IMG/VR virus record: IMGVR_UViG_2690316233_000002
Location: 1-18,934 of that record
Length of the DNA stretch: 18,934 nucleotides
Reading direction: 5' to 3' (one strand)
Origin: a virus
Taxonomy: Duplodnaviria; Heunggongvirae; Uroviricota; Caudoviricetes
The notes beneath the pieces were generated by a model that was given only the letters and a program-made list of their open reading frames with translations, did no database searches and was not told the origin of the DNA. Shown piece after piece: positions 2,300 through 12,522 of this stretch (its first letter is position 1; every line of letters starts with the position of its first letter). Made by a program: the position numbers and the translations under genes.

Positions 2300-2948
2300 T
2301 GGCAGCAAATACCGAAATATTTGGGTAGTTGGCGATCTGCACGGATGCTACACGAACCTGATGAAAAAACTGGAGACGATAGGATTCGACACCAAAAAAG
2401 ACCTGCTTATCTCGGTTGGCGATTTGGTCGATCGCGGTACAGAGAACGTCGAATGTCTGGAATTAATCACATTCCCCTGGTTCCGAGCTGTACGTGGAAA
2501 CCATGAGCAAATGATGATTGATGGCTTATCAGAGCGCGGAAACGTCAATCACTGGATGCTTAATGGCGGTGGCTGGTTCTTTAATCTCGATTACGACAAA
2601 GAAATTCTGGCTAAAGCTCTTGCCCATAAAGCAGAAGAACTTCCGTTAATCATCGAACTGGTGAGCAAAGATAAAAAATACGTCATCTGCCACGCCGATT
2701 ATCCCTGTGATGAATACGAGTTTGGAAAGCCAGTTGATCATCAGCAGGTAATCTGGAACCGCGAACGAATCAGCAACTCACAAGACGGGATCGTGAAAGA
2801 AATCAAAGGCGCGGACACGTTCATCTTTGGTCATACGCCAGCAGTGAAACCACTCAAGTTTGCCAACCAGATGTATATCGATACTAGGGCAGTGTTCTGC
2901 GGAAATCTCACATTGATTCAGGTACAGGGAGAAGGCGCATGGGCATAA
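2277..2948 (+). CDS. ninI: Ser/Thr protein phosphatase NinI (lambda PPase family)
   Basis: Calcineurin-like metallophosphatase motifs GDLHG, GDLVDRG, GNHE. Start chosen at the internal ATG 2277 ([23 protein letters not shown]...) to match the lambda PPase N-terminus; the ORF-track start at 2202 would overlap ninH extensively. Confidence 0.9.
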
Positions 2949-3457
2949 GAGAACTAAACCTCACCAAAGAGCAGCATGAGTGGCTGAATGGCTGGCTTGA
3001 ACTGTGGGGCGCATGGGTTTATTCAGGTCGTCTGGAAAAGCGCATGAGCAGCGTAATAGCGAAGTTCATGGAGAGCGTAGAGCCGGGAAGAGTTATGACA
3101 AGGCCAATGTGCAATGATGATGATGGAATGTTGATTTCTCAGGTCGTCGATTCCGTTATGTACATTGACAAAAAAGCCTTTGGCATCCTCCTCAGCTACT
3201 ACGCTCATGGTTCATCTAAGCGAGCAATTGCATCCTACTATCACGCGACTGCAAAGCCACGCAAGATGTGTGGACGTGGTGGCGAGGGATGGAGAAAACC
3301 TTCACTGGCAACCTGTAGAAACGAAATTGACGACATCCTGAAAGCGTCGTTATTTGTTTTGTACCAGCCAATGCAAAATGCTTTCAAAATGCGTAAACGT
3401 GTTGAGAAAGTTAAGCATGTTGCTGTTAAAAGCCTTGACATGCAATTATCCATTTAG
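2939..3457 (+). CDS. Q: Late-gene antiterminator Q, non-lambda type (phage 21/82/QuuD-like family)
   Basis: 172 aa with an ELWGAW...MCNDDDGM signature recalled from QuuD-type Q proteins. Lies between ninI and the late promoter and lysis genes. GGAGAAGG Shine-Dalgarno upstream; start overlaps the ninI stop. Confidence 0.75.
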
Positions 3458-3464
3458 CCATAAT
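3435..3464 (+). promoter_or_regulatory. Candidate late promoter pR' (sigma70 -35/-10), with the presumed Q-utilisation region
   Basis: TTGACA at 3435-3440, 18-nt spacer, CATAAT at 3459-3464, straddling the Q stop codon (3455-3457) as in lambdoid pR'. Confidence 0.5.
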
Positions 3465-3474
3465 TAGAAGGTAA

Positions 3475-3520
3475 GCTGCCGTTAGTGACTCTTAAGTTGC
3501 AACGGTGGCTTTTTTGTTTG
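3475..3520 (+). terminator. Candidate Q-regulated terminator (tR'-like): imperfect hairpin plus T-tract
   Basis: GCCGTT (3478-3483) pairs with AACGG(TG)GC (3501-3509) with one bulge, followed by CTTTTTTGTTTG (3510-3520), about 40 nt downstream of the predicted pR' start. Stem is imperfect. Confidence 0.35.
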
Positions 3521-3593
3521 CACAACAGGTAAGAGCATTGAACCCGCAGACCTCGCGGAATTGGCGAAAGGTGCCGCGCAGTGCTCTTATCGT

Positions 3594-3723
3594 TGTGGTG
3601 AAGCTCAATGGCGAGCTAGCAGATAGGCGATAGTGAAAATACTAGTCATGTAGCTGACCGCCGCGCGTACTGCAATCGGCAGCGCACCGATGGAAGCCGG
3701 TTCGATTCCGGCCGCCACAACCC
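3594..3723 (+). ncRNA. tRNA-like element: canonical T-arm, anticodon-arm-like hairpin and acceptor pairing, with a ~58 nt insertion; not a standard tRNA
   Basis: T-arm GCCGG-TTCGATT-CCGGC (3696-3712). Anticodon-like arm ATCGG-CAGCGCA-CCGAT (3675-3691). Acceptor pairing TGTGGTG (3594-3600) with CGCCACA (3713-3719). D-arm-like GCTC-AATGGC-GAGC (3603-3616). No encoded CCA (ACCC follows); position 33 is A rather than U. Confidence 0.3.
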
Positions 3724-3943
3724 AAACTGAGCCGTAGCCACTGGCTATCCTAGATTCATCAGTGATAGTTATGCTGCGGCCTTCTACACATGACCTTCGT
3801 GAAAGCGGGTAGCAAGAGGCTGCGCTAACAACCTCCTGCCGTTTTGCCCGTGCATATCGGTCACGAACAAATCTGATTACTAAACACAGTAGCCTGGATT
3901 TGTTCTATCAGTAATCGACCTTATTCCTAATTAAATAGAGCAA

Positions 3944-3974
3944 ATCCCCTTATTGGGGGTAAGACATGAAGATG
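3944..3974 (+). promoter_or_regulatory. S-gene translational control region: sdi-like stem-loop and dual start codons (Met1-Lys-Met3)
   Basis: Hairpin CCCC-TTATT-GGGG at 3946-3958 immediately upstream of ATG 3966 and ATG 3972 (ATGAAGATG), the lambda S107/S105 dual-start arrangement. Confidence 0.7.
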
Positions 3975-4289
3975 CCAGAAAAACATGACCTGTTGGCCGC
4001 CATTCTCGCGGCAAAGGAACAAGGCATCGGGGCAATCCTTGCGTTTGCAATGGCGTACCTTCGCGGCAGATATAATGGCGGTGCGTTTACAAAAACAGTA
4101 ATCGACGCAACGATGTGCGCCATTATCGCCTGGTTCATTCGTGACCTTCTCGACTTCGCCGGACTAAGTAGCAATCTCGCTTATATAACGAGCGTGTTCA
4201 TCGGCTATATCGGCACTGACTCGATTGGTTCGCTTATCAAACGCTTCGCTGCTAAAAAAGCCGGAGTAGAAGATGGTGGAAATCAATAA
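3966..4289 (+). CDS. S: Holin/antiholin S (class I, lambda S type)
   Basis: 107 aa beginning [34 protein letters not shown]..., recalled as near-identical to lambda S. Three hydrophobic TM segments; directly precedes the endolysin gene. Confidence 0.95.
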
Positions 4290-11246: not shown

Positions 11247-12518
11247 ATGCCTAACAATCTCGACAGTAACGTCAGTCAAATCGTTCTGAAAAAATTCCTT
11301 CCGGGTTTTATGTCAGATTTAGTTCTGGCGAAAACCGTAGACCGTCAGTTGCTGGCAGGTGAAATCAACTCCAGCACTGGCGATAGCGTTAGCTTTAAAC
11401 GTCCGCATCAATTCTCATCCCTCCGTACTCCCACTGGTGATATTTCAGGGCAAAATAAAAACAACCTGATCTCAGGTAAAGCTACGGGGCGTGTAGGTAA
11501 CTACATCACTGTTGCTGTTGAATATCAGCAACTGGAGGAAGCGATCAAGCTTAACCAGCTGGAAGAAATTCTCGCGCCGGTTCGCCAGCGAATCGTTACC
11601 GACCTTGAAACAGAGCTTGCTCACTTCATGATGAATAACGGTGCGTTGTCACTTGGTAGCCCCAATACTCCAATCACCAAATGGTCTGATGTTGCGCAGA
11701 CGGCATCTTTCCTGAAAGACCTCGGCGTTAATGAAGGTGAAAACTATGCTGTAATGGATCCATGGTCTGCACAGCGACTTGCTGATGCGCAGACTGGTTT
11801 GCATGCTTCAGATCAATTGGTTCGTACTGCATGGGAGAACGCACAGATCCCAACCAATTTTGGCGGCATTCGCGCACTGATGTCTAATGGGCTTGCCTCT
11901 CGTACGCAGGGGGCATTTGGCGGAACACTGACAGTCAAAACACAGCCAACTGTTACCTATAACGCAGTTAAAGACTCATACCAGTTCACTGTAACATTGA
12001 CCGGAGCGACAGCCAGCGTTACAGGTTTTCTGAAAGCTGGTGATCAGGTCAAATTCACCAATACCTACTGGCTGCAACAGCAGACCAAACAGGCGTTGTA
12101 TAACGGAGCCACACCAATTAGCTTCACTGCAACGGTTACTGCTGATGCTAATTCAGACAGCAGTGGCGATGTGACGGTTACGCTTTCTGGTGTTCCGATT
12201 TATGACACTACAAACCCGCAGTACAACTCTGTAAGTCGTCAGGTAGAGGCAGGCGATGCCGTATCTGTAGTAGGCACTGCTAGCCAGACAATGAAGCCAA
12301 ACCTGTTCTATAACAAGTTCTTCTGTGGACTTGGCTCTATCCCACTGCCGAAACTGCACAGTATTGATTCTGCTGTTGCAACATATGAAGGTTTCTCCAT
12401 CCGCGTACATAAATACGCAGATGGCGATGCCAACGTGCAAAAAATGCGCTTCGACTTACTGCCTGCATATGTGTGCTTTAACCCTCACATGGGCGGTCAG
12501 TTCTTCGGTAATCCGTAA
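11247..12518 (+). CDS. Major capsid (coat) protein (Sf6 gp5-like)
   Basis: 423 aa, the recalled Sf6 coat length, directly after the scaffold gene with AAGGAAAAG upstream. Followed by a strong terminator, as expected for the most abundant late product. Confidence 0.8.
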   Translation: MPNNLDSNVSQIVLKKFLPGFMSDLVLAKTVDRQLLAGEINSSTGDSVSFKRPHQFSSLRTPTGDISGQNKNNLISGKATGRVGNYITVAVEYQQLEEAIKLNQLEEILAPVRQRIVTDLETELAHFMMNNGALSLGSPNTPITKWSDVAQTASFLKDLGVNEGENYAVMDPWSAQRLADAQTGLHASDQLVRTAWENAQIPTNFGGIRALMSNGLASRTQGAFGGTLTVKTQPTVTYNAVKDSYQFTVTLTGATASVTGFLKAGDQVKFTNTYWLQQQTKQALYNGATPISFTATVTADANSDSSGDVTVTLSGVPIYDTTNPQYNSVSRQVEAGDAVSVVGTASQTMKPNLFYNKFFCGLGSIPLPKLHSIDSAVATYEGFSIRVHKYADGDANVQKMRFDLLPAYVCFNPHMGGQFFGNP

Positions 12519-12522
12519 TAAC

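Follow-up and report, generated by a model that had tools for sequence, protein, structure and literature searches.

Two stable RNAs of bacteriophage T4, rnaC and rnaD (species 1 and 2 RNAs), are about 120–140 nt long and are encoded in a cluster of genuine tRNA genes; rnaC is predicted to fold with long extra arms and a canonical T-arm (CCGGG-UUCGAAU-CCCGG) that abuts the 3′ closing strand. Neither is known to have a function. Here we describe an element at positions 3592–3721 of an 18,934-nt stretch of Caudoviricetes DNA (IMG/VR virus record IMGVR_UViG_2690316233_000002; the whole stretch is referred to as the window), which is one copy of a portable RNA family of approximately 130–137 nt, hereafter the module. 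The T4 RNAs are the closest analogues of the module, copies of which in the phages Akira and gmqsjt-1 likewise lie in tRNA units and are co-oriented with the tRNA genes. However, the arm layout differs, no self-complementary loop like that of the module was noted in rnaC, and the T4 RNAs are known only from T4-like myoviruses, whereas the module is also found in lambdoid leaders. Homology was rejected, as a covariance model of the module finds nothing in rnaC or rnaD at E≤10.

Other described systems share parts of this design. Functional tRNA genes occur downstream of Q in Sf6, phage 21 and L (tRNA-Asn, -Thr, -Leu) and in Stx phages (ileZ-argN-argO; PMC8022706). These genes resemble the module in their slot between tR′ and the holin gene and in their T-arm, D-loop GG and acceptor logic, but they have four arms and 75–90 nt against its five arms and about 130 nt, and differ from its A33, C37, A8 and 9-bp closing helix. 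The hairpin in the lambda N leader, a known cis regulator of N translation, shares its flanking helix and position with the module copies found in N leaders, although its interior is unrelated and not tRNA-like, and some copies of the module are remote from any N gene. Transfer-messenger RNA (tmRNA), Y RNA (YrlA) and other tRNA mimics combine a T-arm with an acceptor-like helix as a handle for the host tRNA machinery, as the module may do. Unlike tmRNA, it has no mRNA-like domain, pseudoknots or G3-U70, and 130 nt is too short; the tmRNA mode of ARAGORN finds no tmRNA in the element. No Y RNA or YrlA match was obtained from Rfam at E≤10, and the ends of YrlA RNA lie at the anticodon side, whereas those of the module lie at the acceptor-like helix. 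The apparent design also recalls engineered tRNA scaffolds, in which an RNA of interest replaces the anticodon arm of a tRNA body for stable expression in E. coli: the tRNA body would provide processing and nuclease resistance and the added arm the function. In the module, by contrast, the arm is a product of natural evolution and supplements the anticodon-like arm, standing between it and the D arm.

Structure and conservation of the tRNA-like element

The element had been flagged in an original prediction made from the letters alone, and is confirmed as a real, strongly conserved phage RNA structure (Table 1). It is best described as five helices around one junction, a five-way junction that joins a tRNA body to an extra arm. 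The predicted parts of the tRNA body are all present: a 7-bp acceptor pairing (3594–3600 with 3713–3719, including U3599-G3714), a canonical T-arm (3696–3712) abutting the 3′ acceptor strand, a D-like hairpin (GCTC 3603–3606 with GAGC 3613–3616, loop AATGGC containing GG), and a 5-bp/7-nt hairpin (ATCGG-CAGCGCA-CCGAT, 3675–3691) separated from the T-arm by GGAA (4 nt). The proposed insertion between the D-like and anticodon-like arms is also there, but measures about 56 nt (3618/3619–3673/3674) rather than ~58 nt. The closing helix required revision, as pairs 8 and 9 covary across the family and extend it from 7 to 9 bp. The claim that no CCA is encoded holds for the 7-bp helix, which is followed by ACCC, but not for the 9-bp helix, directly followed by CCA (3722–3724). 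This encoded 3′ tail differs by context, being CCA or ACCA after the 9-bp helix in some copies and ACU or CAU in others.

A BLAST search with positions 3585–3730 returned a block of ~137 nt with 73–100% identity in 92 phage records from unrelated genomes and contexts, including HK75-like lambdoid late leaders and Pantoea phage PdC23. In virulent Salmonella phages (Skatevirus, Akiravirus, seszw) the module is intergenic and antisense to the flanking structural genes, and in the P22-like phage BIS08P22 it lies 21 nt upstream of the N gene. A pattern scan, in which the first pattern required the small anticodon-like hairpin and a rescan used the 5′ half only, located it in at least 120 contigs of IMG/VR and, within GTDB, in three genomes, those of Klebsiella pneumoniae ATCC 13883, an Enterobacter and a Superficieibacter; 59 distinct cores were collected. 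The family was found at no fewer than 130 phage or prophage loci from Escherichia, Salmonella, Klebsiella, Enterobacter, Superficieibacter and Pantoea. Among 5,426 complete E. coli genomes, 175 carry it, in every case on the chromosome, and PGAP almost never annotates it there. A covariance model, whose E-values are rough, scores the window copy at 154 bits and full-length members at 132–160 bits, with all else at or below 17 bits. The next start codon lies as little as about 20 nt or as much as several hundred nt from the module, and no conserved neighboring protein gene was found across the module loci examined.

The helices also appear when the sequence is folded alone, although this fold is not significant in isolation (z = −1.9; as good a fold is reached by 8 of 200 shuffles). 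Comparative data were far more informative. RNAalifold recovered all arms from 37 sequences, and in a debiased alignment of 43 sequences, to which the figures for doubly changed pairs and paired cells below refer, 95.1% of cells form standard pairs, compared with 31–45% when the partners are slid. Double compensatory changes affect 23 of the 40 pairs. None of 500 shuffles reached any observed measure, although the member sequences are related, so that the shuffle statistics overstate independence and cells do not equal independent events. Compensatory support extends to five helices: the closing helix (six of its nine pairs doubly changed, 97% of cells paired), both stems of the extra arm (base and upper), the T-arm and the anticodon-like hairpin. 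The anticodon-like stem occurs as AUCAG/CUGAU and AUAGG/CCUAU in the rescan anchored on the 5′ half; its seeming invariance was partly an artefact of the pattern that required the hairpin, while the last four bases of its loop, CGCA, are invariant. The D-like stem is constant in the 43 sequences save for C-G to U-G in four, and thus provides no covariation evidence either way. Finally, G-U cells (108) outnumber A-C cells (19), which indicates that the structure is selected in the + strand RNA and not in DNA. The near-invariant internal loop of the extra arm was compared by inspection with K-turn and sarcin-ricin motifs, neither of whose consensus it matches.

Table 1. Positions of the module and of leader features in the window.
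Feature	Position	Strand	Remarks
pR′ late promoter	3435–3464	+	TTGACA-18-CATAAT, 11/12 matches; annotated as pR′ in near-identical HK75 and Sf6 records
tR′ terminator of the short pR′ leader transcript	about 3474–3515	+	Transferred by alignment from the HK75 annotation (Tr′, L002 854–895)
CACAAC	3521–3526	+	Identical to the outer part of the 3′ closing strand (3716–3721)
Hairpin H1, just after tR′	3528–3591	+	Stem GGUAAGAGCAUUG/CAGUGCUCUUAUC; hypervariable apical part of ~40 nt; minimum free energy (MFE) fold
Closing (acceptor-like) helix, 5′ strand	3592–3600	+	GUUGUGGUG; pairs with 3713–3721
D-like arm	3602–3617	+	AGCUC/loop AAUGGC/GAGCU; loop GG equivalent to G18 G19
Extra (central) arm	3619–3673	+	55 nt; recovered by RNAalifold and pair counts
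Extra arm, base stem	3619–3622/3670–3673	+	Double changes in 3/4 pairs
Extra arm, asymmetric internal loop	3623–3625/3663–3669	+	AUA/GCGCGUA; near-invariant
Extra arm, upper stem	3626–3633/3654–3662	+	Double changes in 7/9 pairs
Extra arm, apical loop	3634–3653	+	20 nt; centered on a self-complementary hexamer
Hexamer, center of apical loop	3641–3646	+	ACUAGU; candidate loop–loop (kissing) dimerization site
Anticodon-like hairpin	3675–3691	+	AUCGG-CAGCGCA-CCGAU; 5-bp stem, 7-nt loop with A33 and C37 equivalents
Canonical T-arm	3696–3712	+	GCCGG-UUCGAUU-CCGGC; 3/5 pairs doubly changed, 99.5% of cells paired
Closing helix, 3′ strand	3713–3721	+	CGCCACAAC; then CCA 3722–3724

The hexamer in the apical loop of the extra arm is self-complementary in all 59 distinct cores and in the debiased set; it occurs as seven types (ACUAGU, ACCGGU, UCUAGA, UCCGGA, UCUGGA, UCGCGA and GCUAGC). 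Treated as pseudo-pairs, its positions are 100% “paired” with three to four pair types, and the symmetry is kept through at least five double substitutions. Calculated self-duplexes are of modest energy, from −3.6 to −8.7 kcal/mol, but self-pairing beats pairing between types. Two possible intramolecular partners, the GAGCUAG junction and the GCGCGC internal loop, were rejected, as these sites stay unchanged when the hexamer changes. Since the hexamer cannot fold on itself and has no covarying partner within the molecule, it suggests intermolecular loop–loop pairing or, less likely, a DNA palindrome. The hexamer probably lets two molecules pair loop to loop.

The body of the module retains the tRNA elbow, as indicated by the invariance of the GG-UUCGAUU-CC T-loop and the D-loop GG, which correspond to those of tRNA. 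It is 57–73% identical to ordinary tRNAs, with Sf6 tRNA-Thr among the best alignment scores. The anticodon-like arm matches E. coli tRNA-Arg(ACG) (argQ) at 12 of 17 positions; three of the five differences fall at loop positions 33, 34 and 37, whereas positions 35 and 36 (C and G) are invariant and position 34 is G or U, which stays within the Arg codon box. In place of the four arms, 70–95 nt and 7-bp acceptor of a canonical tRNA, the module has five helices, about 130 nt and a 9-bp covarying closing helix, and U8 is replaced by A. U33 and a purine at position 37 are near-universal in decoding tRNAs. The original prediction had remarked on an atypical loop, and this proved to be a family trait: A33 is present in all but one distinct sequence collected and C37 is invariant, thus indicating that the RNA is not built to decode.

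ARAGORN calls no tRNA at the module in 35 loci and rejects the intact element even in intron mode, and no Rfam 15 family matches the window at its gathering threshold. A permissive Rfam scan gave a 20.2-bit tmRNA (tRNA-clan) match driven by the T-arm and acceptor, for which the tmRNA threshold is 47 bits. A real tRNA or tmRNA was rejected on these negative results, and so was a mini-tmRNA with a tag frame in the apical loop, because in-frame stops are not conserved across variants on inspection and G3-U70 is absent. In-silico deletion of 3618–3673 yields a tRNA-Arg(GCG) of 75–76 nt with ARAGORN at default settings, whereas nothing is called when the small hairpin is deleted instead. The MFE shape and a 16-bit alignment to T4 tRNA-Ser had suggested a class II tRNA, with the hairpin as long variable arm and the central arm as anticodon arm; this was set aside because only deletion of the central arm gives a detectable tRNA; in addition, the 4-nt linker ahead of the T-arm suits the variable loop of a class I tRNA.

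These results bear on the three identities that had been suggested for the element. An interrupted tRNA is correct as a description of the anatomy, as the deletion demonstrates, but not as a claim of an intron: the insert is a conserved, covarying arm of 56 nt between the D and anticodon-like arms, and neither a group I intron nor an intron detectable by a tRNA finder (ARAGORN -i, default, is negative). A decayed tRNA island is not supported, as both purifying and compensatory selection act strongly on the element in numerous unrelated phages and settings. A tRNA-mimic structured RNA in the late leader was right about the mimic and too narrow about the leader, since copies also lie between nutL and N, in RNA-only operons of virulent phages, beside genuine tRNAs, and among structural genes. 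Although ARAGORN and Rfam are negative at threshold, the paired positions are conserved with covariation in homologous phages, which argues against coincidental helices.

Exchangeable slots in phage leaders

The window is a lambdoid phage segment with a phage-21-type Q gene (2939–3457) and a lambda-type S holin gene (3966–4289). The sole promoter-like site upstream of the element is pR′, and the window copy, which has neither promoter nor terminator of its own, is thus read as part of the late leader; ARAGORN finds 0 tRNA genes in the window, and this copy has no tRNA neighbor. The sequence of tR′ contains a stem (3475–3483/3501–3509) and a U-run. The conserved unit reaches 5′ beyond the module to include hairpin H1 and the CACAAC that precedes it. 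Compensatory variants of the H1 stem (GGAGAGAGUA/UACUCUCUUC, GGUAAUGGCAC/GUGCCAUUACC and GGAAAUCGCUUUG/CAAAGCGAUCC) were identified in an alignment, and H1 is kept with compensatory changes across a range that spans lambda (L003, about 760–820), Pantoea phage PdC23 and virulent Salmonella phages. Copies of the module in the late-leader, Skatevirus, PdC23 and L017-type contexts are accompanied by H1. CACAAC could also pair with GUUGUG at 3592–3597, in competition with the closing helix of the module, and in L080 this pairing lengthens H1 to a perfect 20-bp helix. A 42-codon GTG open reading frame (ORF; 3505–3633, + strand) runs across H1 into the 5′ part of the module; this mechanical ORF lies inside structured RNA and is not conserved as coding sequence.

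Comparison with related phages revealed that the module occupies a slot with exchangeable contents. Lambda shares H1, the preceding CACAAC and the outer closing helix with the window, and this helix differs by compensatory changes (lambda GUUGUGCUG/CAGCACAAC, window GUUGUGGUG/CGCCACAAC). Lambda homology resumes at 3716, inside the 3′ closing strand, and the 67-nt interior of the lambda late leader is unrelated to the module. The possibility that lambda holds a decayed copy was rejected, as its late- and N-leader interiors are no closer to the module than shuffles (p = 0.38 and 0.56) and the covariance model finds nothing. In Sf6, tRNA-Asn and tRNA-Thr occupy the late-leader slot, which bears out the expected likeness in position to lambdoid phages with tRNA genes downstream of Q. 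In CUS-3 (L166:339–402, 694–934), the curator boundary sequences bsq4 and bsq3 bracket a variable late-leader segment that corresponds to the position of H1 and the module in the window.

A second slot is found in N leaders. In locus L010 the module lies between nutL (boxA/boxB) and a lambda N gene, within a long helix between nutL and the ribosome-binding site. Its flanks (AAGCUUUGGGGUGUG…CACACCACCAAAGCU) are identical to those of the lambda N-leader hairpin and lead into the ribosome-binding site and N. Covariation of the flanking helix is seen across phages, the whole L010 leader folds as predicted (z = −5.5), and N-leader copies have ACCA in register with the 9-bp helix. The lambda hairpin is reportedly an RNase III site that controls N translation, as is said to be established from work by Wilson et al. 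in 1997, 2002 and 2004; given the identical flank helix, RNase III may also cleave the N-leader copies of the module. Two helix slots are occupied in L086, the first by a 71-nt tRNA-like gene and the second by the module, while in L020 and L103 the module is in the first slot. The 71-nt gene (L086:8704–8774) is called “tRNA-Ser(tga)” by ARAGORN; ACCA follows its 7-bp acceptor (GGUGUGG/CCACACC), and its loop, CAUGACG, is irregular. The gene sits in a similar flanking helix (GGAAUGUUUUGG/CCAAAGCAUUUC), and the 137-nt module lies about 150 nt downstream of it.

The module is also found outside such protein-coding leaders. The Akira unit is RNA-only, with no ORF above 53 aa, and lies antisense to structural genes; it runs from a promoter-like site through H1, the module and tRNA-Met to a bidirectional terminator. 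Between the module and tRNA-Met is a second long-stemmed hairpin (ACUUAAUGUCCAGC…GCUGGAUAUUAAG; L008:1639–1703), which the flanks of gmqsjt-1 and L080 retain and which resembles a further helix slot. In gmqsjt-1, tRNA-Ile and tRNA-Arg are directly downstream of the module. A terminator separates the module from any downstream gene in L017-type late leaders and in a BPP-1-like prophage.

P22 lacks the module, but its slots provide indirect evidence, by analogy, that slot contents may be released as discrete RNAs. A 2026 study of P22 small RNAs described two discrete, abundant species, P22B and P22E (PMC13397905), at genome positions 12,426–12,521 (−) and 19,716–19,816 (+). These map to the N-leader and late-leader slots, respectively: P22B stops within ACCAAAGCCAUUUCA, the conserved 3′ flank strand, leaving 16 nt to gene 24, and P22E stops 48 nt short of gene 13. 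The published study draws no link from P22B or P22E to RNase III hairpins or slot cargo.

Proposed role and alternative explanations

We favor, with somewhat better than even confidence, a stable, processed, non-decoding tRNA mimic that acts in trans through its extra arm. The module is a horizontally mobile, tRNA-derived structured RNA gene of Enterobacterales phages, in which the acceptor-like helix stacked on the T-arm and the D-loop GG for the elbow were kept for the host processing and binding machinery, while decoding was lost (CAGCGCA, A33, C37) and the 55-nt extra arm was gained. The window copy is transcribed from pR′ within the Q-antiterminated late leader. The 5′ side may then be cut by RNase P, assisted by RNase III in copies that have H1 or a long flanking helix, and 3′ trimming would leave a stable RNA of ~130 nt to accumulate. 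On this tRNA scaffold, the part working in trans would be the invariant AUA/GCGCGUA loop together with the self-complementary hexamer, and the most plausible partner is a host tRNA-binding factor.

The family itself, its structure and strand, its portability and the slot architecture are shown by the data, whereas every step after transcription (processing, stability, dimerization and action in trans) is inferred. Several points weigh against this proposal. RNase P measures a 12-bp acceptor/T length, from which the 14 bp of the module (9-bp closing helix plus 5-bp T stem) departs. The ends of N-leader copies are buried in a long duplex, the encoded CCA is inconsistent across contexts, and no conserved neighboring protein gene at the module loci examined points to a partner. 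AU-rich hexamers give weak duplexes (−4.8 kcal/mol for ACUAGU), and a palindromic hexamer could instead be a feature of the DNA. The kinship of the member sequences discussed above and their restriction to phages of one bacterial order, Enterobacterales, also count here, as do the lack of a promoter and terminator in the window copy and the position of every copy upstream of something on the same strand, which fits a role in cis as well. A bolder version, which we regard as doubtful, is a new class of phage non-coding RNA that is tRNA-scaffolded, homodimerizes loop to loop, is released by host tRNA-processing enzymes from antiterminated leaders or tRNA operons, and acts in trans on a host tRNA-directed factor. 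For example, such an RNA could divert a tRNA-targeting defence, such as an Arg-tRNA-specific nuclease, by serving as its decoy, and the seven hexamer variants would then define dimerization specificity groups.

The main rival is a cis-acting leader element, an unlikely but credible explanation in which the tRNA-like fold attracts RNase P or RNase III to cut the leader and the excised RNA is a by-product. Cleavage could detach nut/qut RNA from the downstream message or create a stable 5′ end, or the fold could serve as an anti-Rho structure, which would be another route to what the RNase III hairpin of lambda does in the N leader. Besides the constant position 5′ of a same-strand gene or tRNA and the absence of a separate promoter or terminator in the window, this explanation accounts for copies that sit exactly where lambda has its hairpin, from nutL to the N ribosome-binding site and with identical flanks, and modulation of N translation by RNase III through the leader is said to be established by Wilson et al. 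However, a processing signal needs no invariant loops, covarying 55-nt arm or always self-complementary hexamer. The variable distance to the next start codon, the hosting of the same module by very different operons, the Akira unit that has no protein gene and ends at a terminator, and the terminators that split the module from the next gene in the L017-type and BPP-1-like prophages also argue against it. A DNA-level element with incidental hairpins, be it a boundary of recombination or mosaicism, a target for a homing endonuclease or a site bound by a protein, is very unlikely. The CUS-3 segment between curator mosaic boundaries bsq4 and bsq3, the lambda-homology junction inside the closing helix, the HNH or homing endonuclease genes within about 0.2–1.3 kb in several loci and the hexamer, which is a DNA palindrome, would suit such an element; yet the excess of G-U over A-C cells is expected only for + strand RNA, compensatory changes keep the helices as the sequence changes, the hexamer varies freely while staying symmetric, unlike the site of one protein, and the window, like many loci, has no endonuclease gene.

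The tRNA-like body could alternatively belong to an interrupted decoding tRNA, from which the extra arm is removed like an intron to give a ~76-nt tRNA-Arg(GCG) that is charged and decodes. The ARAGORN call after deletion of the arm, the resemblance to argQ, the fixed C35 and G36 with G or U at 34, and the real tRNAs in the Sf6 slot are all in line with this, but we consider it highly improbable in view of the near-constant A in place of U33, C instead of a purine at 37, and A for U8. Moreover, the insert lies between the D and anticodon arms, whereas bacterial group I introns of tRNAs sit in the anticodon loop; 56 nt is too small for a group I intron, the intron mode of ARAGORN rejects the element, and the arm is conserved as a structure with invariant loops, unlike a spacer. 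Virtually no weight remains for a decayed tRNA remnant, a pseudogene or chance helices. The silence of tRNA finders and Rfam, the modest single-sequence z and the functional tRNAs at the same slot in relatives might have been read in this way, but the comparative data refute it, with 73–100% identity across unrelated virulent and temperate phages from at least six host genera, 23 doubly compensated pairs, many invariant unpaired positions, and 132–160 bits in full-length members against at most 17 elsewhere.

Novelty, annotation and neighboring genes

No published description of the module was found by keyword or sequence-string search, although a 2023 catalogue of phage structured RNAs may list it as an anonymous candidate. 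The module lies outside the tRNA, tmRNA and Y RNA families and is probably a new Rfam-level family of tRNA-like non-coding RNAs. Lambdoid phages are the best-studied gene-regulation systems, and the module nevertheless went unannotated in both of their key leaders, after nutL and after tR′; it was overlooked because lambda, P22, K-12 and LT2 lack it and because tRNA finders, Rfam and PGAP reject it. Its presence raises the question of what the interiors of leader-hairpin slots do, given that a stable tRNA-like RNA, ordinary tRNAs and unrelated hairpins appear interchangeable there. It also bears on the role of non-decoding phage tRNA mimics, a question that dates from the species 1 and 2 RNAs of T4, and a natural RNA with an obligately self-complementary loop would imply RNA dimers in phage infection.

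HNH or homing endonuclease genes lie ~0.2–1.3 kb from the module in L017, L007, L006 and L008 (Akira), and another is present at L151:1754–2419. No such gene was found near the window copy, and many other loci are also free of them. Where present, they may help to explain the horizontal spread of the module, and they recall segB inside the T4 tRNA cluster.

The module is a ready candidate for an Rfam family, which would correct existing annotations that read “tRNA-Ser” or “polyubiquitin-A” or are blank. In L004, the 3′ half of the module is labeled as a 58-nt “tRNA-Ser” (1581–1638). ON470589.1 and ON470594.1 place a coding sequence for “polyubiquitin-A” over the module, and a few records have a “hypothetical protein” there.

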